Part shown: positions 7,105 through 58,259 of the stretch, piece after piece
How the letters are laid out: the number at the start of each line of letters is the position of its first letter
How positions within the stretch are numbered: the stretch's first letter is position 1
From: an uncultured virus (IMG/VR IMGVR_UViG_3300020727_000702)
Taxonomy: Duplodnaviria; Heunggongvirae; Uroviricota; Caudoviricetes
Virus record (IMG/VR): IMGVR_UViG_3300020727_000702
Reading direction: 5' to 3' (one strand)
Length of the DNA: 64,000 bases
Translations under genes and position numbers: made by a program
Notes under the pieces: model-generated
What the model was told of the DNA's origin: nothing
The model's database searches: none
Seen by the model: the letters and a program-made list of their open reading frames with translations, nothing else

Positions 7105-7548
7105 ATGCTCAAAAAACTATTTCAGCGTTTAGGACGCCATAGAATTATATTAGATAGAGAAAGCAACGATCCTTATTTGGAACGATATTATTTGTTCCTA
7201 AAAGATCGTAAACGTTTTCCATTTAACATATTTCTACACAAATTCCTCAAAGGTGATCGAGACCATTTACACGACCACCCTTGGTCTTACTGCACTTTAA
7301 TACTTAAAGGTGGATACTGGGAGTGGATACCTGGAAATAATTGTGAAATCCGCAAATGGCGTGGTCCGGGACATTTTCGTATGTGTAGAGCCAATTCCTA
7401 TCATCGCATAGAATTAGAACCTGGCGTAACTGCTTGGACATTGTTCATGCCCGGGCAACAACAACGTGACTGGGGATTTTTGGTTGATGATGTATGGATT
7501 CAAAACGAAGAATATTTTAAACAACGCAAGGAGAATGTAAGTGCCTAA
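7105..7548 (+). CDS. Cupin-fold protein
   Basis: FLHKFLKGDRDHLHDHPW...GGYWE...YHRIEL cupin metal motif; start placed at the ATG 7 nt after the -10 box. Confidence 0.7.
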   Translation: MLKKLFQRLGRHRIILDRESNDPYLERYYLFLKDRKRFPFNIFLHKFLKGDRDHLHDHPWSYCTLILKGGYWEWIPGNNCEIRKWRGPGHFRMCRANSYHRIELEPGVTAWTLFMPGQQQRDWGFLVDDVWIQNEEYFKQRKENVSA

Positions 7549-36877: not shown

Positions 36878-37489
36878 ATGAAATCAAAATATAGAAACAG
36901 AAAAAAATTAATCCTAACTGATGCTGACGGCTGTTTGCTGGATTGGGAGTGGGCTTTTAATGTATGGATGCAAGAACATGGTTTTGAAGAAGTTGCTGGG
37001 TCCAAATTAAACTATGACATGGCTATACGCTATGGTATTCCTAGAGAACAAGTAGTAAAGCTGATACGCATTTTTAATGAATCTGCGGCTATTGGATTTC
37101 TTCCTGCCCAGCGCGATGCTATGTACTATGTCAAACGGTTAGTCGAAGAACACGGATATAAATTCCATTGTATTACTTCGTTAAGTCTAGATCCTAATGC
37201 GCAAAGACTTCGTGAGATGAATCTAAGTAAGTTGTTCGGTGAACATACATTTGAACGTATCGTATGTTTAGATACCGGAGCGCACAAAGATGACGCACTA
37301 GAAGAATATGAAGGCACTGGCCTCGTTTGGATTGAGGACAAGCCAGAGAATGCTGAGGCCGGATATAAGTACGGATTAAATTCCCTACTTATAGAACATG
37401 GTCATAATTTTGAATATGCCCATCCGCATATTAAATTAGTTAAAAATTGGAAACATATTTATAGTATAATTACAGGAGAACAGGGTTAA
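36878..37489 (+). CDS. HAD-family 5'(3')-deoxyribonucleotidase-like protein (T4 30.2-like)
   Basis: ILTDADGCLLDW, ITS and WIEDKPEN motifs. Confidence 0.8.
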   Translation: MKSKYRNRKKLILTDADGCLLDWEWAFNVWMQEHGFEEVAGSKLNYDMAIRYGIPREQVVKLIRIFNESAAIGFLPAQRDAMYYVKRLVEEHGYKFHCITSLSLDPNAQRLREMNLSKLFGEHTFERIVCLDTGAHKDDALEEYEGTGLVWIEDKPENAEAGYKYGLNSLLIEHGHNFEYAHPHIKLVKNWKHIYSIITGEQG

Positions 37490-38099
37490 GTTTGCAATTA
37501 TCATTGTGCCATCGTACTAAGTGACTTGGTTGAAACATTCCGTTACAATGAATACACTTAAATCGTTCTCTGTTTTTTGCTTTATTGCTAAGTACAGCCC
37601 GATATTCTACCGATGATCTTGACTCTGCTTGTTTCTTAATATAATCTGGATCATTCCATAGAGCTTTTACGGAATTAGTAATATTATTAATTATCACTTT
37701 TCCAGCAGGAGTAGTATATCGAGTTTGCCTTTCAATTTTCATAGTGTTGTATTGATCTGTATCCTGCCAACGGGCTATAGCACTTTTATGTTGAAGATAA
37801 CTTGATTGCTCAGTTGAATTATAACTTCTGCCAGTTCCACCTGATCGTAAATTATAACAGAGCGGATTGGATAAGTTTTCGTTAATAACTTTAATTTCCT
37901 GTTGATAGGCCTCACCCTCATTGTCAAACTCAAACAGAGTTTCACGAACAAAGTTGTCTTTTCCGTATTTTTTGATTGCTTTTGCTAATAACGATCCAGA
38001 CCCGTAATATCCGTCAAATGATTCTTTAGATTGATTATGTTTGCCAATGTAAAATTTTCCATTGACTAAATTTGTAGTTTTGTATATAATAAATATCAT
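37470..38099 (-). mobile_element. Free-standing GIY-YIG (Seg-like) homing endonuclease gene
   Basis: IIYKTTNLVNGKFYIGKH..YYGSG..AIKKYGKDNF..E..YN; C-terminal CIHC..RWHNDNC zinc finger. Confidence 0.85.
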
Positions 38100-38168
38100 T
38101 GCTGATTGCTCCTTTAAAGCGTTAGAGTCCCTGGGTGTTTCAGCACCGCGAGGGACATCTTTATTTAG
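38100..38168 (-). ncRNA. Structured 5' leader, copy 1 (with late promoter)
   Basis: CTAAATA..GTCCCT-CGC-GGTG-CTGAAA-CACC-C-AGGGAC..GCTTTAAAGGAGCAATCAGCA-ATG; covaries with the copy at 54563-54630. Confidence 0.75.
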
Positions 38169-38171
38169 TGC

Positions 38172-38903
38172 TTAATCGTACATCTTTAAGATATGCGTTA
38201 TCATATGATGACGCTGAATATCCTTAGATTCAAACTCGCATAGACTAATGCCCTTTACACCCCCTTTCTTAAGTCTGGTTAGGATGTCGGCTAAGCCGTT
38301 TTTTGCGCCGGTTCGATCGGTCTGTTCGGTGTCCCCTGTCACTACTATCTTACTGCCTTCGCCAATGCGTGTTAGAAGCATGACCATTTGAGCAGGGGTC
38401 ATATTTTGAGCCTCGTCAGCGATGATAAATGCTTTTTTTAGTGATCTGCCTCTCATAAACGACAACGGAGCAATTTCAATTTTCTGATCTTCGATCATCG
38501 CTGCAATGTCTTGCGGACGATAATACTCTCTCAGTATGTCTGTAATTGGTTTAATCCACGGGTCCATTTTTTGATTTAAGTCACCCGGTAAAAATCCGTG
38601 ATTTTCGTTTTCAACAGAAACTGCTGGTCTAGTTAGTACTATGCGATCTACTTCTCCTTCTCTAAAGGCTTTTATTGCCGCCAGGACGGCAAGATATGTC
38701 TTGCCTGTGCCTGCCGGACCCGCTGTTACGACAATATACTGACTATCGTCTTGTAAAGCCAATACTAACTTTTCCTGATTTCTAGTTCTGGGAACTATGT
38801 CAATCGGGCGTTGTTTTACTGGTTTAACTTGGTCGAAGCGTATTGTGTTTTCTGGTTGTGCCATTTGGCGTTTTTGTGATTTTACTGCTCTGTGTCTACT
38901 CAA
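38172..38903 (-). CDS. phoH: PhoH-like ATPase
   Basis: GPAGTGKT, LTRPAV, GFLPG, MRGRS, DEAQN, LTRIG and GDxxQ motifs; TTG start after GGAG inferred. Confidence 0.92.
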   Translation of the reverse strand: MSRHRAVKSQKRQMAQPENTIRFDQVKPVKQRPIDIVPRTRNQEKLVLALQDDSQYIVVTAGPAGTGKTYLAVLAAIKAFREGEVDRIVLTRPAVSVENENHGFLPGDLNQKMDPWIKPITDILREYYRPQDIAAMIEDQKIEIAPLSFMRGRSLKKAFIIADEAQNMTPAQMVMLLTRIGEGSKIVVTGDTEQTDRTGAKNGLADILTRLKKGGVKGISLCEFESKDIQRHHMITHILKMYD

Positions 38904-39081
38904 TTTATACTCCATTGTAGTTGAGTTACTTCCGACAGCACCTTGCTGTCCAAAGTATTTACGACCCATGATTTTTATATTCTATGGGTGTTAATAAGTG
39001 TAATAGATAGCATAAGTACATACCCAGGCCCCAAAAATTCAAAATAACCCTAACCTTTCCATTTAACTAAATAATAGTACC

Positions 39082-43769: not shown

Positions 43770-43832
43770 CCATAACAGTTGTGTTTGCGACAAAATTGCT
43801 ATATACTATTACAGTACCAAGCAAAGGAAAAC

Positions 43833-46112
43833 ATGCAGAATAATAAAGAAATTGAACAAATTGTTGCGCAGGCTGTCAAAATAGCTAAAGATCTTCAACA
43901 CGAATACGTGTTAACCGAACATGTTTTATTGGCGCTAATACGTCATGCTCCATTTCAGACTGTGATGGAAAATTTTGGTATCAATGTCAATATGTTAGAC
44001 ATGGAACTTGATGCTTATTTGCAAAGTTTAACAAATTTAGTCACTGACAAAAAAGATCACCAGCCTAGAAAAACAAATGCGTTGGAACGCTGTTTTAATC
44101 GAGCAATGACACAAGTTCTTTTTACTGGTCGTCGCTCTATGACTACTGGAGATTTATATCTTGCTATTATGGCCGAAACCAATAGCCATGCTCAATATTT
44201 CCTTTTAAAATATGGTGTTAAAAAAGTTGAGTTTTATGATTATTGGCAACAAAATTATAAACATGATGACATTAAACTTACAGGCACACAAGCGGATGAA
44301 ATATTAAATGAATACTGTGTAAATTTGACTCGTTTGGCAACAGAAGATAGACTAGAGCCAATGATTGGACGCAGTGAAGAATTAGATCAAATGATTACAG
44401 CACTGGCAAGGCGTTTTAAAGCCAATGTATTAATGGTAGGCGATCCTGGCGTGGGCAAAACTGCTATTGTAGAAGGACTTGCTCAAGAAATTATTGCTAA
44501 TCGTGTTCCTAAATTCCTTATTGGACACGAAGTATGGTCGTTAGAAATTGGATCATTGCTTGCTGGCAGCAAATACCGCGGTGAATTTGAAGAAAAATTT
44601 AAACAAGTTATTGGTGCGCTTGAAGCTAAGAAAAATTGTATTTTGTTTATTGACGAAGCACATACAATGAAAGGTGCTGGTGCTAGTTCACAAAGTACTT
44701 TAGACTTTGCCAATATGTTGAAGCCAAGCATTACTAAAGGCACACTCAAAGTTGTAGCGTCAACAACATGGGAAGAATATTACGAATCATTTGAAAAAGA
44801 TCGTGCTTTAATGCGTCGTTTCCATCGTGTGGCTATTGATGAGCCAAGTCCAGAAGTTACGGAACAAATTCTTATTGGATTAAGCCCACGTTTAGAATTA
44901 TTTCACAATGTTATGATTGAAACAGAAGCCATTAAAACTGCTGTGGATTTAAGCGGCCGTTATATACATGACCGTAAGAATCCGGATAAGTCAATTGACT
45001 TATTAGATGGTGCTTGTGCTCGTGAACGTGTTAAAGATGCAGGCAATGTGCCTATTACTAAAGATTTAATTATGGCTCAGTTAAGTCGTGTAACTGAAGT
45101 GCCAATAGATAGACTACAAAACGAACGTTCTGCCAGCATAGTAGAGTTAGAAAGCAATATTAAAGAAAAACTATATGGGCAAGACGAAGCAGTAGATTCA
45201 GTACTTGAACGTGTCTACATTAACTTTTCAGGCATTGGCAACGATTCTCGCCCCATTGCTTCATTTTTGTTCTTGGGTCCAACAGGTACTGGTAAAACGG
45301 AACTTGCTAAATTGCTGGCCAAGAATTTAGATATGCAATTATTAAAGTATGACATGAGTGAATATCAAGAAAAACATACTGTTAGCTCATTAATTGGTGC
45401 TCCGCCTGGTTATGTAGGATTTGAAGATGGCAATGTCGGAGGTGGAAAACTTATTTCGGACATTTCAAAGAATCCATATTCAATTATTTTGTTTGACGAA
45501 ATTGAAAAAGCACATCCAGATGTTATCAACATTATGTTACAAATGCTTGATGAAGCTCGCATTACATCAGCCAATGGAAAAACAGTTAATCTCAAAAATA
45601 CCATTATCATTATGACATCAAATTTAGGATCTCGTGATAATGAAAATAATAATATTGGGTTTGGGCAAGACTTAGAAAAAACTGGATCAGAAGAAAAAGC
45701 AATGAAAAACTTCTTCAAGCCTGAACTACGCAATCGTATTGACCAAATATGTAAATTCAAAAAACTTGATACATTGGCCATTAAGAAAGTTGTACTTAAA
45801 TTTGTTGAGCAATTACAAACAAGTTTAACTACAAAAAATATCAAACTTAATTTATCCGAATCAGTTATTGACATGTTAGCTGAAAAAGGATATGACAGTA
45901 AAATGGGGGCTCGTCCTTTGAATCGCAAAATTGATGAACTTATTCGTGTACCATTAAGTAAGAAAATTTTATTCGAACGGTTAACTGACTGTGTAATTAA
46001 TGCTATAATGGTAGATGATAAAATTGATTTTACAATTATACCAACAACTACATTTCCAGCTTTAGATAGTTCCGGAATAATTGTGCTGAATAATGAATCC
46101 CCTAACATTTAA
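43833..46112 (+). CDS. clpA: ClpA-like AAA+ chaperone
   Basis: Clp N-domain (EHVLLAL); two NBDs (GDPGVGKT/IDEAH and GPTGTGKT/DEIEKAH); IGF loop; MGARP. Confidence 0.9.
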   Translation: MQNNKEIEQIVAQAVKIAKDLQHEYVLTEHVLLALIRHAPFQTVMENFGINVNMLDMELDAYLQSLTNLVTDKKDHQPRKTNALERCFNRAMTQVLFTGRRSMTTGDLYLAIMAETNSHAQYFLLKYGVKKVEFYDYWQQNYKHDDIKLTGTQADEILNEYCVNLTRLATEDRLEPMIGRSEELDQMITALARRFKANVLMVGDPGVGKTAIVEGLAQEIIANRVPKFLIGHEVWSLEIGSLLAGSKYRGEFEEKFKQVIGALEAKKNCILFIDEAHTMKGAGASSQSTLDFANMLKPSITKGTLKVVASTTWEEYYESFEKDRALMRRFHRVAIDEPSPEVTEQILIGLSPRLELFHNVMIETEAIKTAVDLSGRYIHDRKNPDKSIDLLDGACARERVKDAGNVPITKDLIMAQLSRVTEVPIDRLQNERSASIVELESNIKEKLYGQDEAVDSVLERVYINFSGIGNDSRPIASFLFLGPTGTGKTELAKLLAKNLDMQLLKYDMSEYQEKHTVSSLIGAPPGYVGFEDGNVGGGKLISDISKNPYSIILFDEIEKAHPDVINIMLQMLDEARITSANGKTVNLKNTIIIMTSNLGSRDNENNNIGFGQDLEKTGSEEKAMKNFFKPELRNRIDQICKFKKLDTLAIKKVVLKFVEQLQTSLTTKNIKLNLSESVIDMLAEKGYDSKMGARPLNRKIDELIRVPLSKKILFERLTDCVINAIMVDDKIDFTIIPTTTFPALDSSGIIVLNNESPNI

Positions 46113-46816: not shown

Positions 46817-47182
46817 ATGACTTTAACTACAGAAACACTATTACCCACAACCGTTTATGGTACCCCCTCGGGAAACTATGATGGATCTAGTACTACTTTT
46901 ATTGGCAACGCTATTCCGGCTGCTAACTTTTACGGTGGACAAGGTTCCGCGCAAACTGCTATAATTGAAGTAACAGGTCTACTAGCCAATATTACAATAC
47001 AAGGCAGTTTAAATGATTGGACCGAACAGGCTGTATGGTTTGACATTGAACGTTATGGTAATACTACAGTTCCAGTCACTGAAACAACTGCTATTAATAT
47101 GGTGGGTAATTTTGTTTGGCTTCGAGCCGCTGTTACAGATTTTACCGCAGGCACCGTCAATTCAGCTAACGTAATATATTAA
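46817..47182 (+). CDS. Probable virion protein
   Basis: ITIQGSL..WFDI..GNFVWLRA; TAAATA upstream. Confidence 0.55.
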   Translation: MTLTTETLLPTTVYGTPSGNYDGSSTTFIGNAIPAANFYGGQGSAQTAIIEVTGLLANITIQGSLNDWTEQAVWFDIERYGNTTVPVTETTAINMVGNFVWLRAAVTDFTAGTVNSANVIY

Positions 47183-47195
47183 GCTAAATATTACA

Positions 47196-48020
47196 ATGCG
47201 TACTATTGTAATTTACCCCGGTCGTTATCAACCCCCACACAAAGGTCATAAATCTTCTTATGATTATTTGACAAAAAAGTTTGGTGAAAATAACGTTTTT
47301 GTAGCCACGTCAGATGTTGTTGCTCCAATGACTAGCCCTTTTAGTTATCCAGATAAAGTAGAAATGCTTGCCAAATTGGGAATTCCAGCTAGTCACATTG
47401 TGCAAGTTCGGAACCCATATCAAGCGCAGGAAATTACACGTGATATTTCTAATCCTGAAGATACAGCATTGGTATTTGCTGTATCTGAAAAAGATATGAC
47501 TGATGAAAAGCCACGTTTTACGTTTGGAGTGAAGAAAAACGGTGAGCCATCTTACATGCAACCATATCCAGAAAATGGTAAAAAATTGCAACCATTAACT
47601 AAACACGGTTATGTTATGGTAACTCCGACTACTACATTTAAAGTTAAAGGAAAAGACGCCAATTCTGCTACAGCAATACGCAAACTGTATATAGATGGAA
47701 ATGACAATGACCGTAAACAAATTATCCATGATTTATATGGTGTCGATGATTCAGCAATTAAAGATATTTTTGACAAGAAATTAGGCGTAGCTAAAAAGAC
47801 TAAAGAAGTAGTATTACAACCGCCTCCACTTGATGCCAATGTATTAGATACCCCGGCGCCATTGCAACGTGAAAATAAAAAATACCAAGCAAAAAAAGCA
47901 CGTTTATTAGAATCAACTATACTAGCTGAACGTAAAGCTGCACATTGTTATCGTTCCTATGACGAAGATTTAATACCTAATTACATAGACGAAAAAACAG
48001 GCAGAAAATTTTACCGGTGA
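47196..48020 (+). CDS. Cytidylyltransferase-like (HxGH) protein
   Basis: IYPGRYQPPHKGH..SPF..SATAIR. Confidence 0.75.
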   Translation: MRTIVIYPGRYQPPHKGHKSSYDYLTKKFGENNVFVATSDVVAPMTSPFSYPDKVEMLAKLGIPASHIVQVRNPYQAQEITRDISNPEDTALVFAVSEKDMTDEKPRFTFGVKKNGEPSYMQPYPENGKKLQPLTKHGYVMVTPTTTFKVKGKDANSATAIRKLYIDGNDNDRKQIIHDLYGVDDSAIKDIFDKKLGVAKKTKEVVLQPPPLDANVLDTPAPLQRENKKYQAKKARLLESTILAERKAAHCYRSYDEDLIPNYIDEKTGRKFYR

Positions 48021-48065
48021 TATAACTTCTGTTAAATATTAGGACATATTTTAACAGAGGAAAAA

Positions 48066-49025
48066 ATGGTATCCACAAATCAAGCAGTAGAAGCAAAAGC
48101 CCCCGAAGTAACTCCAACAACAGAAGCCCCAGCTCAACAGGCACCTGGACCCGGTCAAGTACAAATCAATATTGATTTCTTAAAAACTACTAGAGTACAC
48201 ATCTGTATGCCCTGTTACGGTGGAATGTTAACAGAATCAACTTTCATGAGCTATATTAAATGGGCTAATACTGCTCGTCAATTGGGCATTGATTGGACTA
48301 TGGAAACCATGACCAATGAGAGTTTAATCTCTCGTGCCCGTAATACTCTCACAGCCAAATTCCTCTCAAATCCAGATTCCACACATTTAATGTTTATTGA
48401 TGCTGACATTGGTTGGGAACCATGGCATTTGCTAGTTATGTTAAATCGTGATGTGGATGTTATTGGTGGACTATACCCGATGAAATCACTGCCAGTTAAA
48501 TGGTGTGTAAACGGCTTTGAAGGTGCCGAAGAAGGTCCAGATGGTTTACAAGAAGTTACTAAAACAGGCACAGGTTTCCTCTTAATGAAACGTGGAGTAT
48601 TTGAAAAATTAAATGCTCACCCAGCAGTTAAACCATTTAACTCCGATATTGGTCTCCCACCAGAGTTAAATGTGTATATGAAAACTTATTTTGACACAGC
48701 AGTTCGCGAAAATCGCTATTATAGTGAAGATTGGACATTCTGCGAAAACTGGCGCGATCTAGGTGGTAAAGTTTGGGTAGATAAACGAGTATTGCTACGT
48801 CATACTGGAACTTATGTATTTGACTTTGCTACCCAAGATCAACTGTACAAAGATTTACATGAAATTGTGGTTAACAATCAAGCACAAGCACAGACTGTAG
48901 CACAGGCTACTGGTGCGGCTCCGGCACCAGCAATGGCAGCCCCAGTTGATACTACCGCTGTTCCTGCTCCGGCTGCTCCGGCTGCTCAGGTTATAGCAAG
49001 TAGTAAGGGAAAAAAGAAAAAATAA
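48066..49025 (+). CDS. GT-A fold glycosyltransferase-like protein
   Basis: NESLISRARN, HLMFIDADI, GGLYPMK, GTGFLL and SEDWTFC motifs. Confidence 0.75.
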   Translation: MVSTNQAVEAKAPEVTPTTEAPAQQAPGPGQVQINIDFLKTTRVHICMPCYGGMLTESTFMSYIKWANTARQLGIDWTMETMTNESLISRARNTLTAKFLSNPDSTHLMFIDADIGWEPWHLLVMLNRDVDVIGGLYPMKSLPVKWCVNGFEGAEEGPDGLQEVTKTGTGFLLMKRGVFEKLNAHPAVKPFNSDIGLPPELNVYMKTYFDTAVRENRYYSEDWTFCENWRDLGGKVWVDKRVLLRHTGTYVFDFATQDQLYKDLHEIVVNNQAQAQTVAQATGAAPAPAMAAPVDTTAVPAPAAPAAQVIASSKGKKKK

Positions 49026-49047
49026 ACTGAATAGTTTATAAACGGGC

Positions 49048-49085
49048 AAAGCCGCTATCAGCAATGTTAGCGGTTTTGTTTTTTT
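49048..49085 (+). terminator. Intrinsic terminator
   Basis: AAAGCCGCTATCA-GCAA-TGTTAGCGGTTTT plus T-run. Confidence 0.7.
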
Positions 49086-49100
49086 GCACTAAATATATTA

Positions 49101-50843
49101 ATGAACATTCAAGAACTTAAATCTTATAATCTAGCCGATGCAGTAAAGTTTCATGACCATCTTAATCCTTTATTGTGGGATAGGCAAGAACATTTACACC
49201 CCGAAATAAAGGATCAATTATTAGCCATTGCCGCTGATTTTAGCGAATTTTTGGGAGTTAAAGATTTAGAACTTAAAGACATAACAATATCTGGTAGCAA
49301 TGCCGCTTATTCTTATACGCCACACTCAGACATAGATTTACACTTAATTGTTGATTTATCCAATGAAGCTAATAACGAAGTTTATCGCGAGTTATTTGAT
49401 GCTAAGAAATTTATATATAATAGCGAAAATAAAATTACCATAAAAGGTATTCCAGTTGAGTTATATGTACAAGATGCTGGACAGGCGCATCATAGTCAAG
49501 GAATTTATAGTATTTTAAATAATAATTGGATACAAGTACCTCGTAGAAAACATGCTGACATAGATGACATGAGTGTTCGTAGCAAATATCGAGATTTAAG
49601 CAAACGTATTCGAGAAGCTATCAAAACTAATTCTACAGAAAAAATGTCCGAGGTTATGGATAAAATAAGAGCTTTGCGTCAAACTGGTCTTGCTGAACAT
49701 GGAGAATTTGGTGCTGAAAATTTAGCATTCAAACTGCTCCGCAATAAAGGTGATTTAGAAAAATTATCCAAAGCTCGTAAAGCAGCAAAAAGTCAAGAAT
49801 TAAGTTTAAAAGAACGCGAACGTACGCCTACCCCAGTTGTATATGGATATAAATCTGATCGAGATTACATTGATGAAGTAGGTATTACTCCTGATGGTAC
49901 TGATCCTAGCACTTGTGAATTTACCAATGAAGGACAATTAAACGAAGTAGGTATTACGCCTGATGGTACTGATCCTAGCACTTGTGAATTTACCAATGAA
50001 AATGATAATAATCAATCAGAAACAAATATCATTGATGACTTTGTAAAATTTTGTATTGACAAATTAAAATTAGATAATCCTCCTAAATTAAGATTACGCC
50101 GAGATCCAACATGGTCACAACGCAATAAAACATTTGGAAGATTTAATCCTCAAACAGGTGAGTTAGAGGTGGCGGTAGGATCTAGACATATTATGGATAC
50201 TCTTCGTACCCTGGCACACGAACTTACACACCAACACCAGCACGAAACTATCGATATGCCAGATACAGCAGGAGAAACTGGAAGCGAGTTTGAAAATGAA
50301 GCTAATGCTCGCGCTGGCATAATTATGCGCGACTATGGTAGTATGCATCCTGAATTGTTTACTGACAATATTATTGACGAAGGATACGGAGCCATTACAC
50401 CTGCTGGCGAAAAAATTGTTAAATGGCAACAAGATAAACTTGCTGGAAAAGAATTTGCCATTCAAGGTTATAGAATTAAATTTACTGATAAAGGTCTTTT
50501 GATTTTTAAAGGTGCTGATTTAATTTTTAAAAAACCCGGAGATTATTCCAATCCTACTAATTTGGATATGACCAAGGCTAGGCGATATATTACTAATTTG
50601 TCTAGAAATTGGAAACCAGATCCTATAGTAAATGAAGCTACTGGCTATATCCCCACTGCCGCAGAAGCACATGATCCACGTTTTGAAATGGCACTTACTG
50701 TAGATATACGCCCAGGTGCGCTTGGCAAAAATGCCAATAAGTTATTATTAGATACTGATAGCCAAGGTCGTCCACAAGAACTACGTCCAGATGGCATAGT
50801 ACATCGTATGATGGAAGAATTAGAATTGTTTAAAAGGAATTAA
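49101..50843 (+). CDS. Multidomain protein: pol-beta-type nucleotidyltransferase plus Zn-metallopeptidase-like domain
   Basis: SGSNAAYSYTPHSDIDLH (GS..DxD); RTLAHELTHQHQ..ENEANARAG (HExxH..E). Confidence 0.75.
   Translation: MNIQELKSYNLADAVKFHDHLNPLLWDRQEHLHPEIKDQLLAIAADFSEFLGVKDLELKDITISGSNAAYSYTPHSDIDLHLIVDLSNEANNEVYRELFDAKKFIYNSENKITIKGIPVELYVQDAGQAHHSQGIYSILNNNWIQVPRRKHADIDDMSVRSKYRDLSKRIREAIKTNSTEKMSEVMDKIRALRQTGLAEHGEFGAENLAFKLLRNKGDLEKLSKARKAAKSQELSLKERERTPTPVVYGYKSDRDYIDEVGITPDGTDPSTCEFTNEGQLNEVGITPDGTDPSTCEFTNENDNNQSETNIIDDFVKFCIDKLKLDNPPKLRLRRDPTWSQRNKTFGRFNPQTGELEVAVGSRHIMDTLRTLAHELTHQHQHETIDMPDTAGETGSEFENEANARAGIIMRDYGSMHPELFTDNIIDEGYGAITPAGEKIVKWQQDKLAGKEFAIQGYRIKFTDKGLLIFKGADLIFKKPGDYSNPTNLDMTKARRYITNLSRNWKPDPIVNEATGYIPTAAEAHDPRFEMALTVDIRPGALGKNANKLLLDTDSQGRPQELRPDGIVHRMMEELELFKRN
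49875..50000 (+). repeat. In-frame tandem duplication (2 x 57 bp, 69-bp period)
   Basis: EVGITPDGTDPSTCEFTNE at 49875-49931 and 49944-50000; one synonymous difference. Confidence 0.95.
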
Positions 50844-50845
50844 CA

Positions 50846-52186
50846 ATGAAAGCTCGTGAATTTATTATCGAATCTGCACAGACAACACTAGGTGGATTTA
50901 AAGTCACTCCGTTACATATTGAAGATCAAGGTGTTGAAGAATCTGACATTAGTGGGTTATTAGCAGCCGGCCAATTTAATAAACAATTTAGAATTACAGC
51001 AAATATATACGGTGTCATAAAACACTTTAAGGTCAAAGCTCAGAGCGCACGAATCGCACAACATAAAGTTGAGATTCACCACCCCGGGGCTAAAATTTTA
51101 AATGTAGAAGAAATTACAAATGAAGCTATTGGGTTAAATGCTCCACATCGCCGAATGAGTCGCGATGAGTTACAAGGTTATACCGATCGTATTAAAACTG
51201 GTACTAAGACAAAGAAAGATAGATTTGCTCCAATCATACACGGTAGCAATATCAAAGCAATTACTAAAGATGACGAAGGTACCGAATGGGATTTAGATGA
51301 TTTAGCCCGACAAATCACTACCCGCCCTCGTTCATTATTAGGCACTAATGCTAAAATGAGTAAGAGTGCTACAGAAGGCGAAATTGTTTATGACTTAACA
51401 TTGCCAGCATTAAGCGGTGTTGTTGTGGACGAGGAAACAGGCGATTTTGTAGAAATTACTACTTGCCCTGGTGCTGGTGGTTGTCAATTATTTTGTTACG
51501 CTCGTAAAGGTGGATATGTAATGTTCCCTGCTAGTAGTATGTCAGCTGCACAAGCATTAAACTTTTTAGTCAATGACCCTGCTGGATATATGGCCATGGT
51601 TAACAAAGAAATACAAGGTCTTAAAGGCAAAGCAGACAAGCATGGTATTAGATTAGTTGTACGCTGGCATGATGCTGGAGATTTCTTTAGTAAAGAATAT
51701 TTAGATCTAGCATTTAACGTTGCTCGTACTAATCCAGATGTAAAATTTTATGCTTATACAAAAATAGCCGCGGCTGCGACTGCCAACAAACCAGATAATT
51801 TTATTGTTAACTTTAGTTCGGGAAGTAAACGCGGTGAAGAAAAGCAAATTGAACTACACAAAGCTCAAGGAAACGCAGTGAAAGATGCTGTAACATTACC
51901 CAAAGACTTGTTCCGCACATTGTTTGTTACGGATGCTAAAGGCAAATATGTTAAAGATACCAAAGGTCGTACACAAGTTAAAAGTCCTGAAGCATGGGAA
52001 GAATTTAAAAAAATGCTGGCCACTAGGTATAAAATTGATCCAGCATCAATTATCACATACGATCAAATGTTAACAATTCCTGAAGGCCCTCAACCTAAGT
52101 GGAATGTGGTTATATTTCCAGCAGGACACGGAGACCGTGCTGCCAACAGATTGGATGTAATTAACAGTTTTTTAATGTTCCACTAA
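50846..52186 (+). CDS. GP88-like (Cys-cluster) protein with N-terminal extensions
   Basis: NAKMSK..LPA..TCPGAGGCQLFCYARKG..RWHDAGDF..FYAYTK. Confidence 0.7.
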   Translation: MKAREFIIESAQTTLGGFKVTPLHIEDQGVEESDISGLLAAGQFNKQFRITANIYGVIKHFKVKAQSARIAQHKVEIHHPGAKILNVEEITNEAIGLNAPHRRMSRDELQGYTDRIKTGTKTKKDRFAPIIHGSNIKAITKDDEGTEWDLDDLARQITTRPRSLLGTNAKMSKSATEGEIVYDLTLPALSGVVVDEETGDFVEITTCPGAGGCQLFCYARKGGYVMFPASSMSAAQALNFLVNDPAGYMAMVNKEIQGLKGKADKHGIRLVVRWHDAGDFFSKEYLDLAFNVARTNPDVKFYAYTKIAAAATANKPDNFIVNFSSGSKRGEEKQIELHKAQGNAVKDAVTLPKDLFRTLFVTDAKGKYVKDTKGRTQVKSPEAWEEFKKMLATRYKIDPASIITYDQMLTIPEGPQPKWNVVIFPAGHGDRAANRLDVINSFLMFH

Positions 52187-52187
52187 A

Positions 52188-53063
52188 ATGATTTTAAACG
52201 ATTTTATCCAACCTAAACTAAAGTTTAGTCGTGAAAAACTAGACGCAGTTCTTGTTGAGCTTTGCGATATGGTTATCGAAGGTCAACAAGATAATCCAGA
52301 CTTTTATGGTATGGTAGCTGCCGCGGTATTAGATCCTCGAGGTAGATTAGTCACTGGTGTAAATTATCTATATGGAAATTCAAGAATCCATGCTGAACGA
52401 GCAGCCATAGACAAGTATGAAGAAGAGTATGGAGAATTGCCAAAAGGCAGTATTGTAATTACTACACTGAGCCCATGCTGTGAAGATACTGGCGATAATC
52501 GCTATGGTGTTAGCTGTACAGATTTATTAAATGAAAAACATGTCAAATTAGCCTATTGTGGGTATCAAGATCCCACACAGGACAGTAAAAATAGTTTTAT
52601 AGTTATTGTCACTGAAAATGAAAAATTAAAATCACTCTGTAAAAAATTTGCTGATACATTTTTGGACAAAGGCATTACTGAAAGTGCTGAATCAAGTCGT
52701 GCCCAACAGTTTATTGACAGCGTATATAGTCAGTATCCAGATTGGCCTTATGGCCAAGCAGATAAAGTTATGGTATGGGGTGAGGGCGAAGATCAACAAT
52801 TTGCCGCGTTCAAACTTAAACCTGGAACGGCACCTGACACAGTAGAAATAGATTGGATTATGGCTGGCCCCGAACAGCGCAAAGGCGTTGGTAGTCGCGC
52901 TATTAAAGAATTACAGCGACAAGCAAAAGAGGCCGGTATCAAATTAACATTATACCCTTGGGCTAAAGGCAATGTAAGTCAAGCATCACTGACTAGGTTA
53001 TACAAACGTCATGGATTTAAACCTGTCGCAAAAGGTGCTAAGCCAATGCGCTGGAACTGCTAA
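52188..53063 (+). CDS. Zn-dependent deaminase fused to GNAT acetyltransferase
   Basis: IHAERAAI..TLSPC..C; PEQRKGVGSRAI..LYKRHGF. Confidence 0.75.
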   Translation: MILNDFIQPKLKFSREKLDAVLVELCDMVIEGQQDNPDFYGMVAAAVLDPRGRLVTGVNYLYGNSRIHAERAAIDKYEEEYGELPKGSIVITTLSPCCEDTGDNRYGVSCTDLLNEKHVKLAYCGYQDPTQDSKNSFIVIVTENEKLKSLCKKFADTFLDKGITESAESSRAQQFIDSVYSQYPDWPYGQADKVMVWGEGEDQQFAAFKLKPGTAPDTVEIDWIMAGPEQRKGVGSRAIKELQRQAKEAGIKLTLYPWAKGNVSQASLTRLYKRHGFKPVAKGAKPMRWNC

Positions 53064-53666
53064 ATGAGATTTTTTGAAATAGCCCGCATACCAAAAAGCC
53101 AATTAGATGGGTGGGGCGATGCAGATACCATAACCCCACAGCAAGAACCTGTAGGTTCAAAACCCTTGCCAGGTGGTAGTGGATACAAATATCACGTAAA
53201 TCGCAAAGGCAACGATAATATAGAAATTACTTTGTATGACAAAGGAGAAATTATTGCCGAATTAGATTTAGAAGAATTAGGAGCTCCCATTCCACTTTGG
53301 CGAGTTGAAACTGTTGTTGCTACTCCCGAATATCAAGGTCGAGGCTTAGGTATGGCATTATATGGTATAGCATTAAGTATATTAAAATTAACTCTAGTAG
53401 CAGGCGAAACACAAACTCAACACGGTGCTCGCCAATGGCTTAAACTAAGTCAGATACCCGGTGTAGAAGTTATGGGTATGAAAACTGCTCCTAAAAAAGA
53501 TTATAACCCTGGACCAGATAATCAAGTATTATGGTCGGGACCTGAATACCATACATATACTTTCCCTGTAGCACAAGGATCTAAATCAATGAAAAGTGCC
53601 CAGCGCGGTAATGGAATATATAATTCAGCTGGCGCATCTATGATTGCCAAATGGACTGGCAAATAA
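53064..53666 (+). CDS. GNAT acetyltransferase-like protein
   Basis: VVATPEYQGRGLGMALY..QTQHGARQW. Confidence 0.7.
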   Translation: MRFFEIARIPKSQLDGWGDADTITPQQEPVGSKPLPGGSGYKYHVNRKGNDNIEITLYDKGEIIAELDLEELGAPIPLWRVETVVATPEYQGRGLGMALYGIALSILKLTLVAGETQTQHGARQWLKLSQIPGVEVMGMKTAPKKDYNPGPDNQVLWSGPEYHTYTFPVAQGSKSMKSAQRGNGIYNSAGASMIAKWTGK

Positions 53667-53695
53667 TACTAAAAATATAATACGCTAAATACAGT

Positions 53696-53983
53696 ATGAC
53701 AAAACAATTTGTTCGCATACTGAGTAATATTGACTGTGATTGGGAAGGTTTATCTCCCACATACAGACTATATGTTAACGATGAGTTATTTTCTGAACGT
53801 ACTTGGCGCTGGACCGATAAAGTTTTACAGGAAAATTTACAAGTTGAGGCAGAACCTGGAATTTATGAATTAAAATATGAGCTGGTACCTCCTCATTTAG
53901 CCACTTTTAAAGTGGGCAGTTTATCTGTAGCTTATGGGCCAGCTGAGATCGTCGACAACACACATTTTAGGATTACAGCATGA
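53696..53983 (+). CDS. Hypothetical protein
   Basis: YRLYVNDELFSERTW; CTAAATA upstream. Confidence 0.6.
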   Translation: MTKQFVRILSNIDCDWEGLSPTYRLYVNDELFSERTWRWTDKVLQENLQVEAEPGIYELKYELVPPHLATFKVGSLSVAYGPAEIVDNTHFRITA

Positions 53984-54186
53984 GATTACATGAATTTGTT
54001 AATTTGCAAGAAGAGGCATCAGTTGGGGCAACTGCTAGCGGCAGTGTTGCCACTGTAGCAATGCCGCTAGGCGCTGTACAAAGAAGAATACCAGCAGATT
54101 CATTTTTTATCGGAGTTGAAACTATAGATTCTACTCCTAATACTCCTAAAGAGTATAAAACATATAAGGAAAAATCTAAAGTTTAA
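53980..54186 (+). CDS. Small hypothetical (probable internal head) protein
   Basis: MRLHEFVNLQEEASVGATASGSVA. Confidence 0.55.
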   Translation: MRLHEFVNLQEEASVGATASGSVATVAMPLGAVQRRIPADSFFIGVETIDSTPNTPKEYKTYKEKSKV

Positions 54187-54562
54187 CCAATTTATTTCTT
54201 GATTTATTTCTTTGTATTGAACCAACACCACGATAATACCCCTCAGGGCATCTATCTGATTTAACACTATCTCTTCCTTTAACGCCGCCCGGCCCTCCCC
54301 CTGTTTCAGGTATACGATTTGCCCAATTATTGCTTTCGGCAACATTCCATAATTTGCTGTAGTATCTTCCAGCAGATTTCATTTCTTCTTTATTATCAGT
54401 TTCTAATAAAATTTCGGTATCGACGTCATAACCATAATCTTGTATATGCAAAGTCCAATCAACACCCGAACCTTCATATTTAAATGGATTTTTAGATGGT
54501 TGACCTAAATATTGTAACCCTGTTATTCTGCGAGTCTTTTTGTAGAGATAGTAAATACTCAT
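54176..54562 (-). mobile_element. Short, possibly degenerate GIY-YIG homing endonuclease gene
   Basis: YYLYKKTRRITGLQYLGQ..YEGSGVDW..WANRIPETG; antisense to its neighbours; very short C-terminus. Confidence 0.7.
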
Positions 54563-54630
54563 GCTGATTGCTCCTTTAAAGCATTAGGGTAGTTGGGGAT
54601 TACAGTCCCGCGAACTACACTTCTATTTAG
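54563..54630 (-). ncRNA. Structured 5' leader, copy 2 (with late promoter)
   Basis: CTAAATA..GTAGTT-CGC-GGGA-CTGTAA-TCCC-C-AACTAC..GCTTTAAAGGAGCAATCAGC-ATG. Confidence 0.75.
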
Positions 54631-54646
54631 TTAATTTAACTAAATA
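54624..54646. promoter_or_regulatory. Back-to-back divergent late promoters
   Basis: Palindrome TATTTAGTTAA-T-TTAACTAAATA. Confidence 0.6.
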
Positions 54647-54671
54647 ATAGATAATATATAAAGGATTTATA

Positions 54672-55112
54672 ATGCTTGCTGAATTATTAAAAGTGCTACT
54701 TGCTTCTACATTTACTTATTACCTTAAAGCACACTTTTTTCATTGGTCAGTAGAAGGCAAAGACTTCTATCAATATCACAAATTCCTACAAAAAATCTAC
54801 GAAGATGCTTACGGGGCTGTAGATACTATTGCGGAATTTATTCGCACACTAGACGAATATGCCCCGGGAAGCCTAACTCGTTATCAAGAACTATCACGTA
54901 TTCAAGATCAAACTAAAGTGCCAAGAGCACAACTAATGATAGAAGAGTTATTGCATGACTCACATATTATGATTGAACTTCTCAATGAATGTTTTGCTGC
55001 TGCCACAGCAGAAAATAAACAAGACATCGCAAATTTTATTGCTGAAAGATTAACTGCTACTAATAAGTATATCTGGATGCTATCAAGTTTTTTAAAAGAA
55101 TCTAGAGAGTGA
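54672..55112 (+). CDS. dps: Dps/ferritin-like DNA protection protein
   Basis: KAHFFHWSVEGKDFYQYHKFLQKIYE..VDTIAEFIRTL..WML. Confidence 0.85.
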   Translation: MLAELLKVLLASTFTYYLKAHFFHWSVEGKDFYQYHKFLQKIYEDAYGAVDTIAEFIRTLDEYAPGSLTRYQELSRIQDQTKVPRAQLMIEELLHDSHIMIELLNECFAAATAENKQDIANFIAERLTATNKYIWMLSSFLKESRE

Positions 55113-55113
55113 T

Positions 55114-56343
55114 ATGGATAATGAATTTTACAGCATAGTAGAAAAATTAGCTATTCTTGAAGGACGTATTGCTCCCAAGGATAAAGAAACATTGTCTGCG
55201 GCAAAACAAAAGAAGCCAGCACTTTTTAATAATTTAAAAAAAGCTGATGAAAATGTTATACCTGATGTTGGCGGCGTTCCTGTTGCTGAAGCTAATATGG
55301 AAGAAGATGTAGTATCCAAAGTAAAAGCATCACTAGCTGATTATTTAAAATCTGCCGAAGAAGAATTAAAACAAGATTCAGATTTAATCAAAAAGAAAAA
55401 ACAAGATTTAGATCTAAAGAAAAAAGAATTAAAGGATTTAGACTTACAACAAAAAGCTCATCAAGAAGTTGACGAAGCTGATGAAGACGATGAAGACGAT
55501 GAAGAAGGTGATGACGATTTATTCTATGTTGTTTTACATGACCGCGATGATGACTCAACATTTGTTGGCGAAATTTATAAGCAAGATGGCCGTTGGCGCG
55601 AAGGCAATGTCAGTGGAAATCCTCCATATAATTGGGGTGGATCACACACTTATATGAGTTATTTGACACCTCAAGATATCTGGCAACATATTCAAAATGA
55701 TTTCCGTCGCGGGTTTGATATTGCTGGCCCATTTAGCGACCAGCAAAAAGCATTAGACTACGCAGAATATGAATTTGGAACTGAAGAATTAGACGAAGAC
55801 CACAGAAAACTTGAAGTAGGCGACCGCGTTATGGTTATGGGACCAAATCATTATCAAGGTGAATTTGCTAAGGTTGAAGAATTTAGTCCGTCAGGTAAAT
55901 TTGTTGTAGTAAAATTTGACAATGGCGATGAAGCAAGTATGCATTTATCAGATGTTGAATTTCACAATGATCAAGAAGATGTCGAAGATTGGGAAGAAGA
56001 ATTGGATGAAAACCCAACAGAAGCTCCTCCGCAATCAGCTTCAGGTGGTGGAGGGAATCCCACATACGCAGAAAGTACTACAGCGCCAGTAAAAACAGTT
56101 CATGTACCAGTGGAATGTGGCGATACTGCTATTGGCGGAGCAGGTGGAGCAGGCGGTGGCACACTATTAGTTGAACTACATGGTGATGAACGTGATGGAT
56201 TTTGTATTAAACGTGCTGGACGAGAATTACCAACAAGATTTAAAACATTAGCAGAAGCTGAATTAGCATTAGAAATGTATGTAGCGCATCGTAAGACCAA
56301 ACACGATGCTGAACAATCTACTGATTATCTTGAAGAAAAATAA
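55114..56343 (+). CDS. Modular acidic protein with SH3/KOW-like module (probable internal head protein)
   Basis: Modules separated by ILE/VAE/VDE/LDE motifs; LEVGDRVMVMGP..VKFDNG. Confidence 0.6.
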   Translation: MDNEFYSIVEKLAILEGRIAPKDKETLSAAKQKKPALFNNLKKADENVIPDVGGVPVAEANMEEDVVSKVKASLADYLKSAEEELKQDSDLIKKKKQDLDLKKKELKDLDLQQKAHQEVDEADEDDEDDEEGDDDLFYVVLHDRDDDSTFVGEIYKQDGRWREGNVSGNPPYNWGGSHTYMSYLTPQDIWQHIQNDFRRGFDIAGPFSDQQKALDYAEYEFGTEELDEDHRKLEVGDRVMVMGPNHYQGEFAKVEEFSPSGKFVVVKFDNGDEASMHLSDVEFHNDQEDVEDWEEELDENPTEAPPQSASGGGGNPTYAESTTAPVKTVHVPVECGDTAIGGAGGAGGGTLLVELHGDERDGFCIKRAGRELPTRFKTLAEAELALEMYVAHRKTKHDAEQSTDYLEEK

Positions 56344-56345
56344 AC

Positions 56346-58259
56346 ATGAATATATTTGATTTGTTCGAAGGCGACTCTGCTCGCGATAAATGGAATAAAG
56401 AATCCGCCAAACGTGATGCGGCCGCTAAAAAGCGTGAAGAAGAAATGACAGCACGACATAATCGAGGCAAAGAAGATATGTCAGGCGCAATTGATCGTTT
56501 AGAAAAACATTTAAATACTCCTGTTAAAGAACATGATATGTCGGAAGGCTGGAGTGACGCGATTGTTAGTCAAAGAACCGGCCGACCACGCACACCCTAC
56601 TCAGTGTATATCAAAGGTAAGAAGTGGCGAGATTTTGAAAACGAAGATCATGCAGAAGCTGTAGCAAATAAATTACGAGCCAAATTCAAAGCTGACGGTC
56701 GTGACGCCAGTGTTATTACTATTGCCCCTACTGACTATGATAAAGATATAGTAAAAAAAGAAGCAGCAGTAAACGACGTAAACTTTGGTCATACAGTAAC
56801 TAAAGGTGCTTGGATTGTACACCAGGATGGCAAGAAACCAATTAGATTTAAGACACACATCGGCGCTAAAAAATATGCTGAAAAAAACGGCGGCAAAGTT
56901 TACTCAAGTGAGTTCTACGCAGACAAGATTCAATCACAGGTTGATGAGCATGGTGGTGGTGTAAACGCTATGAATAAATATATTTCATGGCGCAATAGTG
57001 CTAACAAAGAACGTGGAATCACAAAATACCAACCTGTAGGCAAACCTGCCGAAAGTTTACGAGAGTTTGCCCTAGGTGATGAAGGTGAGGAAGATACTTT
57101 ACTCAAGTTTGCTCGCTTATGGTGGAATGGTGACGAAGCTACACAAAATAAAGTTGAAGAAGTATTAGCCAAGATGGGTTGGACTATTGGTGAAAATGAA
57201 TCTGGCGATGAAAACGATGCTTGTTTTGTTGTTCGCAATGGTGACATGAACGGCGATAGTTATATTGCGTTTGGCAAAGAAGATTTAAATGAAGGTTCAA
57301 TGTCCACTGCCGCACATCATCATGCTGGTCCAGAATTTCCAGGATATTGGAAAGGAACTGACTCTGCTAGTTTATCACGTAGACGTATGGTGGGTGATGA
57401 TATAGAAGAAGGTATTGAAGGTAACATGACCGTTAAGTCCTCACCACTATCAGAGCCATTACGTAAACGTAATTTTGTTGCTAAAAATTCTCCCATTACC
57501 GGTGCTGGAAAACACACCAATCAGTTAAAAAAAGCCATGGCAGCAGGCCGCAATGCCAAGCATAAAGCACAAACTATTCCATTCGATGAAAGTATGAATT
57601 TTATGGAGTGGGCAGTAAACAATGACTATAATTTTGCAAAAAATCCCGCTGTTTACAAAGAAGCCAAAGAAGCATTTAAAAAAAAAATAAACGAAATATC
57701 TAAAGATAAAATTGAAAAGTACTACACTGATGTTATTAAAAAACAAGCTGACAACATTGGTATCCAGCCTAATATGTATAGCAAGCTAGAACCAAAACAT
57801 CAACGTGGTATTGATAGAGCAAATAATCGTTTATACAAAAATAATGAAGAGCGCGGACCAATAGCGCCGCACGAAACATATTATGGCGCAATGGATGAAG
57901 CCAAAGGTTTAGGTACACAAGTTAAAATCATCAAAGGCAGTGATGCGGGCAAAATTGGATGGATTAGAGAAATTAAACTTGGTTCTTTTAAAGGAGCTCC
58001 AAAAACTTATTATATTGATCTCGAAGATGGTGGGCAAGCAAATAATTTACCTGGCACTGCATTACGCATAATTAAAAACAAAGTAGATGAAAGTTTACAG
58101 CCAGGCGAATACTATGTTTGGACCGTATACTTTGATAATGGCGGTAAACAAAATATTAAAGTAACCTCAGATAATTTTGATCCAACAGCATATTATGCCA
58201 ATCAAAACAAAGCGGTAGTAAATGTAGATTATAATTGGGAGAAACATAATGAAATTTAA
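56346..58259 (+). CDS. Modular polyprotein-like protein (probable internal head protein)
   Basis: MNIFDLFE start; many short modules bounded by (L/V/M/I)xE; KOW-like GTQVKIIKGSDAGKIG. Confidence 0.6.
   Translation: MNIFDLFEGDSARDKWNKESAKRDAAAKKREEEMTARHNRGKEDMSGAIDRLEKHLNTPVKEHDMSEGWSDAIVSQRTGRPRTPYSVYIKGKKWRDFENEDHAEAVANKLRAKFKADGRDASVITIAPTDYDKDIVKKEAAVNDVNFGHTVTKGAWIVHQDGKKPIRFKTHIGAKKYAEKNGGKVYSSEFYADKIQSQVDEHGGGVNAMNKYISWRNSANKERGITKYQPVGKPAESLREFALGDEGEEDTLLKFARLWWNGDEATQNKVEEVLAKMGWTIGENESGDENDACFVVRNGDMNGDSYIAFGKEDLNEGSMSTAAHHHAGPEFPGYWKGTDSASLSRRRMVGDDIEEGIEGNMTVKSSPLSEPLRKRNFVAKNSPITGAGKHTNQLKKAMAAGRNAKHKAQTIPFDESMNFMEWAVNNDYNFAKNPAVYKEAKEAFKKKINEISKDKIEKYYTDVIKKQADNIGIQPNMYSKLEPKHQRGIDRANNRLYKNNEERGPIAPHETYYGAMDEAKGLGTQVKIIKGSDAGKIGWIREIKLGSFKGAPKTYYIDLEDGGQANNLPGTALRIIKNKVDESLQPGEYYVWTVYFDNGGKQNIKVTSDNFDPTAYYANQNKAVVNVDYNWEKHNEI

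Follow-up and report, generated by a model that had tools for sequence, protein, structure and literature searches.

Mirrored TAAATA boxes and two covarying hairpins form a cassette joined to homing endonuclease genes of several families in uncultured T4-superfamily phages

What is the role of a short structured element that stands directly before two nuclease genes of a phage, and on which of the two DNA strands does its fold matter? The question arises from a window of 64,000 nucleotides (nt), the whole stretch of DNA that was analysed, which is part of the 96.8-kb IMG/VR record IMGVR_UViG_3300020727_000702 (CheckV completeness 28%). An earlier note on this DNA had described a leader of one architecture before two minus-strand genes, taken to be GIY-YIG endonuclease genes, and had proposed a portable unit of promoter, structured element and nuclease. 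Both proposals stand, since the same layout is read directly at 38090-38168 and 54552-54630 and the identical architecture adjoins unrelated upstream flanks. The element, here called the cassette, is joined to homing endonuclease genes of several unrelated families, its helices covary, and its fold is selected on the strand opposite the nuclease mRNA.

On the minus strand both copies, A and B, run in the order CTAAATA, 5 nt, stem P1, CGC...C, stem P2 with a 6-nt loop (CTGAAA or CTGTAA), YCTAAY, GCTTTAAAGGAGCAATCAGC and ATG. The conserved unit of about 79 base pairs (bp) extends beyond the ATG to a TATTTA in codons 2-4. P1 is GTCCCT/AGGGAC in copy A and GTAGTT/AACTAC in copy B, while P2 is GGTG/CACC and GGGA/TCCC, respectively; the five compensatory base pair changes reported earlier are borne out (three in P1 and two in P2, each changed on both sides). 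A 20-mer shared by the copies occurs exactly twice in the window and in the entire 96.8-kb record, and none of 100 dinucleotide shuffles matched it, even with three mismatches allowed. The features of the two copies and the genes that they head, amino acids being abbreviated aa, are as follows.

38090..38168, minus strand: cassette copy A, CTAAATA to TATTTA (model R1, 83.1 bits, E 1.8e-21)
38162..38168, minus strand: copy A sense late-promoter-like box CTAAATA (predicted mRNA start, G at 38156)
38127..38156, minus strand: copy A hairpin 1 (P1 38151-38156/38127-38132; P2 38144-38147/38134-38137; loop 38138-38143)
38148-38150 with C 38133, minus strand: copy A internal part of hairpin 1 (C, G-C pair, C)
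38102..38125, minus strand: copy A hairpin 2 (P3), Shine-Dalgarno AAGGAG in loop and 3' arm, conserved A·C at 38123/38103
38090..38095, plus strand: copy A mirrored TAAATA, inside nuclease codons 2-4 (predicted antisense start, G at 38101)
37470..38099, minus strand: nuclease gene A, Seg-like GIY-YIG homing endonuclease, 209 aa
54552..54630, minus strand: cassette copy B, CTAAATA to TATTTA (model R1, 93 bits, E 1.8e-24)
54624..54630, minus strand: copy B sense late-promoter-like box CTAAATA (predicted mRNA start, G at 54618)
54589..54618, minus strand: copy B hairpin 1 (P1 54613-54618/54589-54594; P2 54606-54609/54596-54599; loop 54600-54605)
54564..54587, minus strand: copy B hairpin 2 (P3), Shine-Dalgarno in loop
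54552..54557, plus strand: copy B mirrored TAAATA, inside codons 2-4 (predicted antisense start, G at 54563)
54176..54562, minus strand: nuclease gene B, short homing-endonuclease-like, 128 aa

Whether these helices reflect selection on pairing was assessed in three alignments of cassette copies. In A1 (MAFFT, 113 distinct copies), 14 of the 18 pairs change on both sides, and the 227 cells concerned compare with 56 ± 6 in shuffles; none of 500 shuffles reached 227, and slid controls gave 4-36 cells. The rows of A1 omit 14 of 127 distinct leaders (L132, a chance match, and 13 with atypical or longer downstream parts). P1 was held fixed in A1 by the search pattern, and its covariation was read from A2 and A4, where five of six and six of six P1 pairs covary, respectively. 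Fifteen of the 18 pairs covary in A4, which was retrieved by protein only and is thus free of the nucleotide search pattern, yet was aligned to the model. Rich covariation of the helices as the sequence drifts indicates that pairing, not homology, is under selection, in agreement with the selection on RNA structure that had been proposed from the two copies.

The fold differs in some details from that first described. The internal loop CGC/C of hairpin 1, thought to be invariant, holds a central pair that itself covaries (G-C in 27 cases, A·C in 14, A-T in five and never G·T) and is flanked by two bulged bases. A mini-hairpin formed by GCT and AGC had been described around the Shine-Dalgarno sequence; the pairing and the position of the Shine-Dalgarno in the loop hold, but these bases are only the inner part of P3, an 8-pair helix (CTAAYGCT/AGCAATCAG) that displays the Shine-Dalgarno in its loop. 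Two further pairings were rejected. The proposed contact of a loop CTG with the CAG before the ATG fails in that CTG is found in the P2 loop of only 9 of 46, 19 of 113 and 10 of 51 distinct copies and the CAG already lies paired within P3, and an extension of an outer helix beyond TAAATA and TATTTA shows no covariation.

On which strand, then, does the fold fit? In A1 there are 1809 Watson-Crick cells, 185 A·C, 5 G·U and 23 others (including 12 gap cells); A2 has 798, 108, 2 and 5, and A4 has 726, 87, 0 and 9. Summed over the three alignments, 380 A·C cells stand against 7 G·U cells, and the 14 non-Watson-Crick cells of P1 are A·C without exception. The bias is present at nine pair positions and in every data set. 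Since A·C on the mRNA strand is G·U on its complement and the non-Watson-Crick cells are mostly A·C, about 99% of cells pair on the antisense strand; standard pairs make up 98.6-99.2% of cells on that strand versus 87.6-89.7% on the sense strand. Selection on structure in the mRNA would give the reverse spectrum, in which G·U is tolerated and A·C is purged. The series at the central pair of hairpin 1, read on the antisense strand, is a path from G-C through G·U to A-U. The predicted antisense fold is more stable than the sense fold in 129 of 144 copies (-15.9 versus -12.4 kcal/mol; Wilcoxon p 2e-22), and this gap comes mostly from hairpin 2, the Shine-Dalgarno hairpin (-5.5 versus -2.9 kcal/mol). 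The asymmetry persists for either direction of the upstream neighbour, with 18 A·C versus 0 G·U cells in the 10 copies whose upstream neighbour is co-directional. These comparisons argue that the fold is selected on the strand opposite the nuclease mRNA, and the sense-strand leader switch of the earlier note is accordingly no longer preferred.

The strand bias directs attention to the ends of the cassette. The sense box, CTAAATA or NATAAATA, stands at a fixed spacing directly before the endonuclease gene, with 5 nt between it and P1 in 110 of 140 copies, which places hairpin 1 flush with the predicted 5' end of the mRNA. T4 late promoters are described as an 8-bp box about one helical turn before the start, without a -35 element and used in either polarity (PMC2988020), and NATAAATA is given in a review as the late box of T4-like cyanophages (PMC2984593). 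In Rak2-like jumbo phages, the closest cultured clade by polymerase, structural genes are described as being preceded by ATAAATA, and a gp55-like sigma factor is reported as well (PMC5259590). Within the window, TAAATA occurs no more than 60 nt upstream of 17 of 76 genes, structural and lysis genes included, versus 3.4% of random windows.

At the other end, 141 of 145 distinct copies have TA[TC]TTA, or TAAATA when read on the opposite strand, after the start codon. This motif lies 5 nt after CAGC in 106 copies and 4, 6, 7 and 8 nt after it in 16, 14, three and one, respectively; one copy has no CAGC-like anchor. The ATG occurs in three registers relative to the mirrored box (ATGxxTATTTA, AATGATATTTA and AAATGTATTTA), and twelve different second codons are used, every one of which ends in T. 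Among HNH_3-type genes the motif is present in 44 of 46 with the cassette and in none of 20 cassette-less relatives; the 'MxIY' head that it helps to encode is joined to the true HNH_3 domain through an indel-rich stretch, and the 20 cassette-less relatives have no such head. The three registers and the absence from cassette-less relatives argue that TATTTA belongs to the cassette and is not a requirement of the protein. Both strands present the same arrangement of TAAATA, N4, T and G, whose G stands at the foot of a hairpin, and late-promoter activity is predicted for both boxes.

TAAATA occurs in other arrangements as well. Five plus-strand genes of the window (starts 14629, 23921, 47196, 49101 and 53696) have TAAATA only 4-5 nt before the ATG, so that late mRNAs beginning at the sixth base would be leaderless, and the layout TAAATA-N5-ATG recurs in other contigs before several HNH_3 nuclease genes that have no cassette. 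Inside gene A, a near-consensus sigma-70-like sequence (TTGACT-17-TATAAT, 38062-38090, plus strand, 11 of 12 matches) overlaps the mirrored TAAATA; it looks like a chance match, and copy B has no comparable one.

How might a fold selected on the antisense strand be combined with a second promoter box? The explanation that we favour, and consider probable without being assured of it, is that the element is a portable two-faced late-promoter cassette whose outward, antisense RNA keeps the nuclease in check, serves as a leader for the neighbouring gene, or does both. The layout would be TAAATA, 5 nt, hairpin 1 (P1, a bulged G-C pair and P2), 1 nt, hairpin 2 (P3), about 5 nt holding the ATG, and TATTTA, so that two late promoters would face each other over about 56 bp transcribed from both. 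The left TAAATA would be a T4-type late promoter, with the first G in hairpin 1 as the 5' end of the nuclease mRNA, and the right TATTTA a second, inward-facing late promoter. Antisense RNA would start at the G that faces the C immediately preceding the ATG, begin with hairpin 2', the antisense counterpart of hairpin 2, continue with hairpin 1', and from this start be exactly complementary to the entire 5' untranslated region (UTR) of that mRNA. In hairpin 2', the loop has the sequence complementary to the Shine-Dalgarno. The G·U pairs of the antisense strand are A·C mismatches in the mRNA, where hairpin 2 is left weak and the Shine-Dalgarno would remain usable.

Two roles may be envisaged for such an RNA, and they are not mutually exclusive. 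In the first, the antisense RNA and convergent transcription would hold down the nuclease, as IS10 and IS200 do for their transposases. In the second, the outward RNA would provide the next phage gene, about 40-70 nt away, with a late promoter and a stable 5' hairpin leader, a role that is suggested by the nuclease gene usually being opposite in direction to its neighbours. There is a precedent for the second role in T4, where promoters of neighbouring genes are described as embedded in endonuclease genes (PMC2988022).

The arrangement of neighbouring genes bears on the second role. When open reading frames (ORFs) are called only if they end in a stop codon, the 115 copies with sufficient flanking sequence comprise 67 with a divergent upstream neighbour, 10 with a co-directional one and 38 that are ambiguous. 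In 30 copies from five large contigs, the gene upstream lies on the opposite strand 18 times and on the same strand nine times, and is absent three times; among the 21 of them for which a nuclease ORF was called, the gene downstream lies on the opposite strand in 16. The gap from the cassette to the start of the divergent neighbour is mostly 42-68 nt, and for 27 of 42 divergent neighbours it contains no TAAATA of their own. On the antisense strand, the stem of hairpin 1' is followed by a conserved AC and then by a U-rich run, for example ACUUUUAUUUA, with a mean of 4.1 T in the first 8 nt; a terminator scan called nothing at copy A or B. In the window the upstream neighbours of the two copies are the following.

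38172-38969, minus strand: PhoH, upstream neighbour of copy A, on the same strand as nuclease gene A
54672..55112, plus strand: Dps/ferritin-like gene, divergent neighbour of copy B, which the outward transcript would enter, with its own AACTAAATA at 54638-54646

The promoters predicted for nuclease gene B and for the Dps-like gene lie back to back at 54624-54646, where they form a perfect 11-bp inverted repeat (TATTTAGTTAA, T, TTAACTAAATA). The longer box form TTAACTAAATA is found in four boxes of the window, at 6589 (minus), 39068, 54629 (minus) and 54641.

Several observations weigh against the two-faced cassette. A search for RNA sequencing runs that contain window positions 47000-56999 listed none. 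A looser, earlier ORF rule gave 52 divergent, 35 co-directional and 33 ambiguous neighbours, and the orientation counts as a whole rest on crude ORF calls. The Dps-like neighbour of copy B has a promoter box of its own and the PhoH gene upstream of copy A is co-directional, so that a role in serving the neighbour is not needed in the window. No clear terminator that would set the length of an antisense RNA follows hairpin 1'. In A1, 159 of the 185 A·C cells stem from two column pairs. Hairpin 1 is nearly as stable on the sense strand (-8.3 versus -9.0 kcal/mol on the antisense strand), and it might therefore stabilise the 5' end of the sense transcript. The mirrored boxes of the window read ATAAATA and GTAAATA, whereas eight of the 17 gene-proximal boxes read CTAAATA, and about one copy in ten has TACTTA, which is TAAGTA on the antisense strand. 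Finally, the two boxes could pair with each other in an outer helix, P0, for which the pair probability averages 0.40 and lies above 0.5 in 52 of 130 copies; such pairing is thermodynamically possible and would fit masking of the T4 type without an antisense promoter.

This last point leads to the main rival, a sense leader of the T4 type, which we consider unlikely. In long early or middle read-through RNAs, the upstream TAAATA would pair with the TATTTA after the AUG and mask the start, whereas late RNAs, starting at P1, would lack the 5' arm and be translated, with hairpin 1 protecting their 5' end. Masking in the sense strand is the scheme documented for I-TevI, I-TevII, I-TevIII, segB and mobE of phage Aeh1 (PMC2988022). 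It would explain the invariance of TATTTA as the complement of a fixed promoter box, and the flush position of hairpin 1 and the partial pairing of the Shine-Dalgarno in P3 are in line with it. The mismatch spectrum favours the other strand, however, and the strand bias is left unexplained. P0 consists of six A-U pairs closing a multiloop, and the base before TAAATA and the base after TATTTA do not covary, a C being partnered by G in 0 of 27 cases. Moreover, P3 with its Shine-Dalgarno lies downstream of the predicted late start, and late transcripts would not be freed from it. Since most of the nuclease genes are opposite to their neighbours, sense read-through from upstream genes should also be rare.

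Alternatively, the antisense fold could act solely in transcripts of the flanking operon that run through the reversed nuclease gene, where it would be a site of processing, a barrier to decay or a weak terminator, and the cassette would then have no antisense promoter of its own. The predominantly reversed orientation of the nuclease genes relative to both neighbours, the position of the fold 42-68 nt before the next gene and the U-rich run after hairpin 1' agree with this proposal. It does not explain the fixed spacing of TATTTA in three registers or its absence from cassette-less relatives, and the A·C asymmetry is found as well in the copies with a co-directional upstream neighbour. In addition, the terminator scan called nothing at either copy, and the two bases directly after the stem of hairpin 1' are the conserved AC rather than U. 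We judge a role confined to read-through improbable.

How widely is the cassette distributed, and which genes does it head? The collection comprises 200 distinct copies from IMG/VR viral contigs. A search with the shared 20-mer gave 22 viral loci, and a pattern anchored on P1 gave at least 126. A pattern excluding the common P1 gave 118 loci, of which 100 were searched with R1 (L254-L270 lying outside that search); R1 confirmed 62, and the other 38 were chance pattern matches in G+C-rich contigs. Of 80 HNH_3-type loci fetched by protein motifs alone, 60 have the cassette directly upstream on the same strand, so that the enrichment of homologues before endonuclease genes, raised earlier as a check, is strong. 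Five large records carry 13, 13, 8, 2 and 1 copies per contig, a record of 360 kb being among those with 13. A scan of 114 downstream ORFs of at least 60 aa matched GIY-YIG/SegE, HNH (PF01844), HNH_3 (PF13392), NUMOD3 and a TnsA-like nuclease, as well as DUF7487, the I-TevI DNA-binding domain, phrog_314, phrog_655 and the unannotated phrog_15526 and phrog_10829. The association with GIY-YIG genes first described is too narrow, as HNH, HNH_3, NUMOD3, TnsA-like, DUF7487 and phrog_15526 genes are headed by the cassette as well. A cassette common to unrelated families is unlikely to be a cofactor for one family of enzymes, as had also been suggested for the RNA. About ten intact cassettes head nuclease genes that are frameshifted, truncated or prematurely stopped (L159, L184, L186, L230, L251, L086, L128 and others), which indicates that the cassette outlasts the gene that it heads, at least temporarily.

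A unit repeated in this way could also act as DNA. It might be a miniature inverted-repeat-like module with TAAATA and TATTTA as its ends, or a homology patch through which nuclease heads are swapped, with the hairpins being by-products or structures of single-stranded DNA. Its ends do form a perfect inverted repeat, nuclease families that are not related have the same head, with a junction rich in indels after 'MxIY', a single genome has as many as 13 copies, and PeSL motifs have been proposed to mediate modular shuffling in T4-like phages (PMC4122927). Rich covariation accompanied by sequence drift is, however, the mark of selection on pairing, a strand-specific wobble bias is not expected of duplex DNA, and the promoter boxes, Shine-Dalgarno and ATG are all positioned for expression. 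Recombination may well bring about shuffling too, yet this leaves the fold unexplained, and we hold a role at the DNA level alone to be very improbable. Both this and the read-through role are less likely than the T4-like sense mask.

Returning to the two-faced cassette, a bolder version of it deserves mention, though we think it doubtful. Transcription from a late promoter in the first nuclease codons could give rise to a new family of phage small RNAs that governs all resident homing endonucleases in trans, in the manner of multicopy inhibition, and rewires the late transcription of split phage genes. By eye, copies in one genome have hairpin 2 and the anti-Shine-Dalgarno loop in common and differ in P2 and its loop, and such RNAs could therefore act in trans. 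If true, the cassette would be a domesticated bidirectional insulator that lets nuclease genes insert in reverse at almost no cost.

No prior description of the cassette was found in the searched literature, which did not cover subscription journals. Rfam 15 gave 0 matches at gathering thresholds across the whole window, and at E values up to 1 the sole match at 10 loci was unrelated and away from the cassette, with none on either strand of the cassette itself; the earlier note had made novelty dependent on the absence of such a match. The restraint of an element's own transposase by an antisense RNA is exemplified by RNA-OUT of the insertion sequence IS10. In IS200, the antisense RNA art200 controls the transposase and secondary structure of the mRNA adds to the repression (PMC4513863). 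The cassette resembles these systems in the structured antisense sequence opposite the 5' UTR and Shine-Dalgarno of an enzyme gene and in an outward promoter near the gene start, which is predicted in the cassette. It differs in that phage homing endonuclease genes are not insertion sequences, the promoters are T4-late-like, there is no similarity in sequence or at the level of Rfam, and the antisense transcript is a prediction.

Among phages, the endonuclease genes of T-even phages and Aeh1 named above are described as having a late promoter and a hairpin sequestering the ribosome-binding site, which limit nuclease production and allow late expression (PMC2988022). A late promoter (TATAAATA-like) immediately upstream of the homing endonuclease gene and RNA structure around the Shine-Dalgarno are features that the cassette has in common with them. 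Their hairpins are gene-specific, sense and formed in long transcripts only, whereas the cassette is one two-hairpin module common to at least four nuclease families, its fold lies downstream of the predicted late start and is selected on the antisense strand, and its promoter box is mirrored. In cyanophage S-PM2, the antisense RNA CfrI of about 225 nt is described as covering the F-CphI endonuclease gene and the end of psbA (reviewed in PMC2984593); as with the RNA predicted here, an antisense RNA of a T4-like phage overlaps a homing endonuclease gene and links it to its neighbour. As described there, CfrI is long and belongs to one phage lineage, in contrast to the cassette, a short module of two covarying hairpins that occupies the 5' end in many families of nuclease genes. 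PeSL motifs of T4-like phages, in which a sigma-70 early promoter (TTGACA-N17-TATAAT) is described as coming after a terminator stem-loop (PMC4122927), are similar in that small conserved regulatory cassettes are repeated through T4-like genomes beside variable genes. The order of parts and the promoter type differ, the present cassette having late-type TAAATA on both strands, two hairpins and a Shine-Dalgarno and being tied to endonucleases.

The carriers of the cassette are uncultured large T4-superfamily phages. The window encodes a T4-type family B polymerase, clamp loader, PhoH, ClpB-like ATPase, Dps-like protein, structural proteins and endolysins; two of its other genes are given here.

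43779-46112: ClpB-like double AAA+ ATPase (phrog_4871, E 2e-233)
7066-7545: cysteine-dioxygenase-like protein

By polymerase the closest cultured relatives are jumbo myoviruses, namely Sinorhizobium phage Phosso (49.5%), Agrobacterium phage Atu_ph07 (45.9%), and 121Q and GAP32 (42%). A search for gp55 among the window proteins found none, the record being about 28% complete. No match to one cassette was found by blastn in 50,697 phage records, and R1 found nothing in the five cultured jumbo phages closest by polymerase (Phosso, Atu_ph07, Vibrio phage 2.275.O, 121Q and GAP32), an empty result that weighs little. A pattern scan of 185,579 bacterial species genomes gave five matches only, all in contigs of metagenome-assembled genomes (L307-L311). 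Four of these bins are Bacteroidota (Mucilaginibacter, Saprospiraceae, Bacteroidetes and Haliscomenobacter) and one is Polynucleobacter, which is either a weak hint of the host or mis-binned phage DNA.

Within the window, the products of the two headed genes differ in their matches. The 209-aa product of gene A matches PF01541 (23.6 bits) and phrog_314 (E 1e-34) and has at most 39% identity to Seg-like genes of cultured phages, and the 128-aa product of gene B matches phrog_314 only (E 1e-7) and no Pfam family. Most complete cassette-headed genes encode about 165-256 aa, and gene B seems to be missing a C-terminal DNA-binding part. A third GIY-YIG gene (ATG at 22792), said earlier to be without the element, indeed has no hairpins and no R1 match and carries GATAAATA 8 nt upstream instead. 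Outside the window, a degenerate third R1 match in the same record (G000:C1:88503-88580, 30.6 bits) has no ORF behind it and was not counted; at this site (L153:1280-1355 and 1501-1578), about 150 nt separate the match from a tRNA-Met gene on the opposite strand, and the match is possibly a decayed copy.

For annotation, the comparison of wobble pairs provides a rule, as a test of wobble asymmetry can overturn the apparent strand of a 'leader'. For phage work, the cassette is a compact natural part that combines promoter, stabiliser and translation start. Should the antisense RNA exist, homing endonucleases would have, for the first time in the searched literature, a family of antisense RNAs that is conserved and covaries, and the cassette would offer an example from nature of T4-type late promoters that converge. 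Few selfish elements of large phages are as common as homing endonuclease genes, and how these are kept harmless has been worked out case by case in T4 only. A module common to GIY-YIG, HNH, HNH_3 and TnsA-like nucleases suggests that it is the control of expression that spreads, beyond the nuclease alone.

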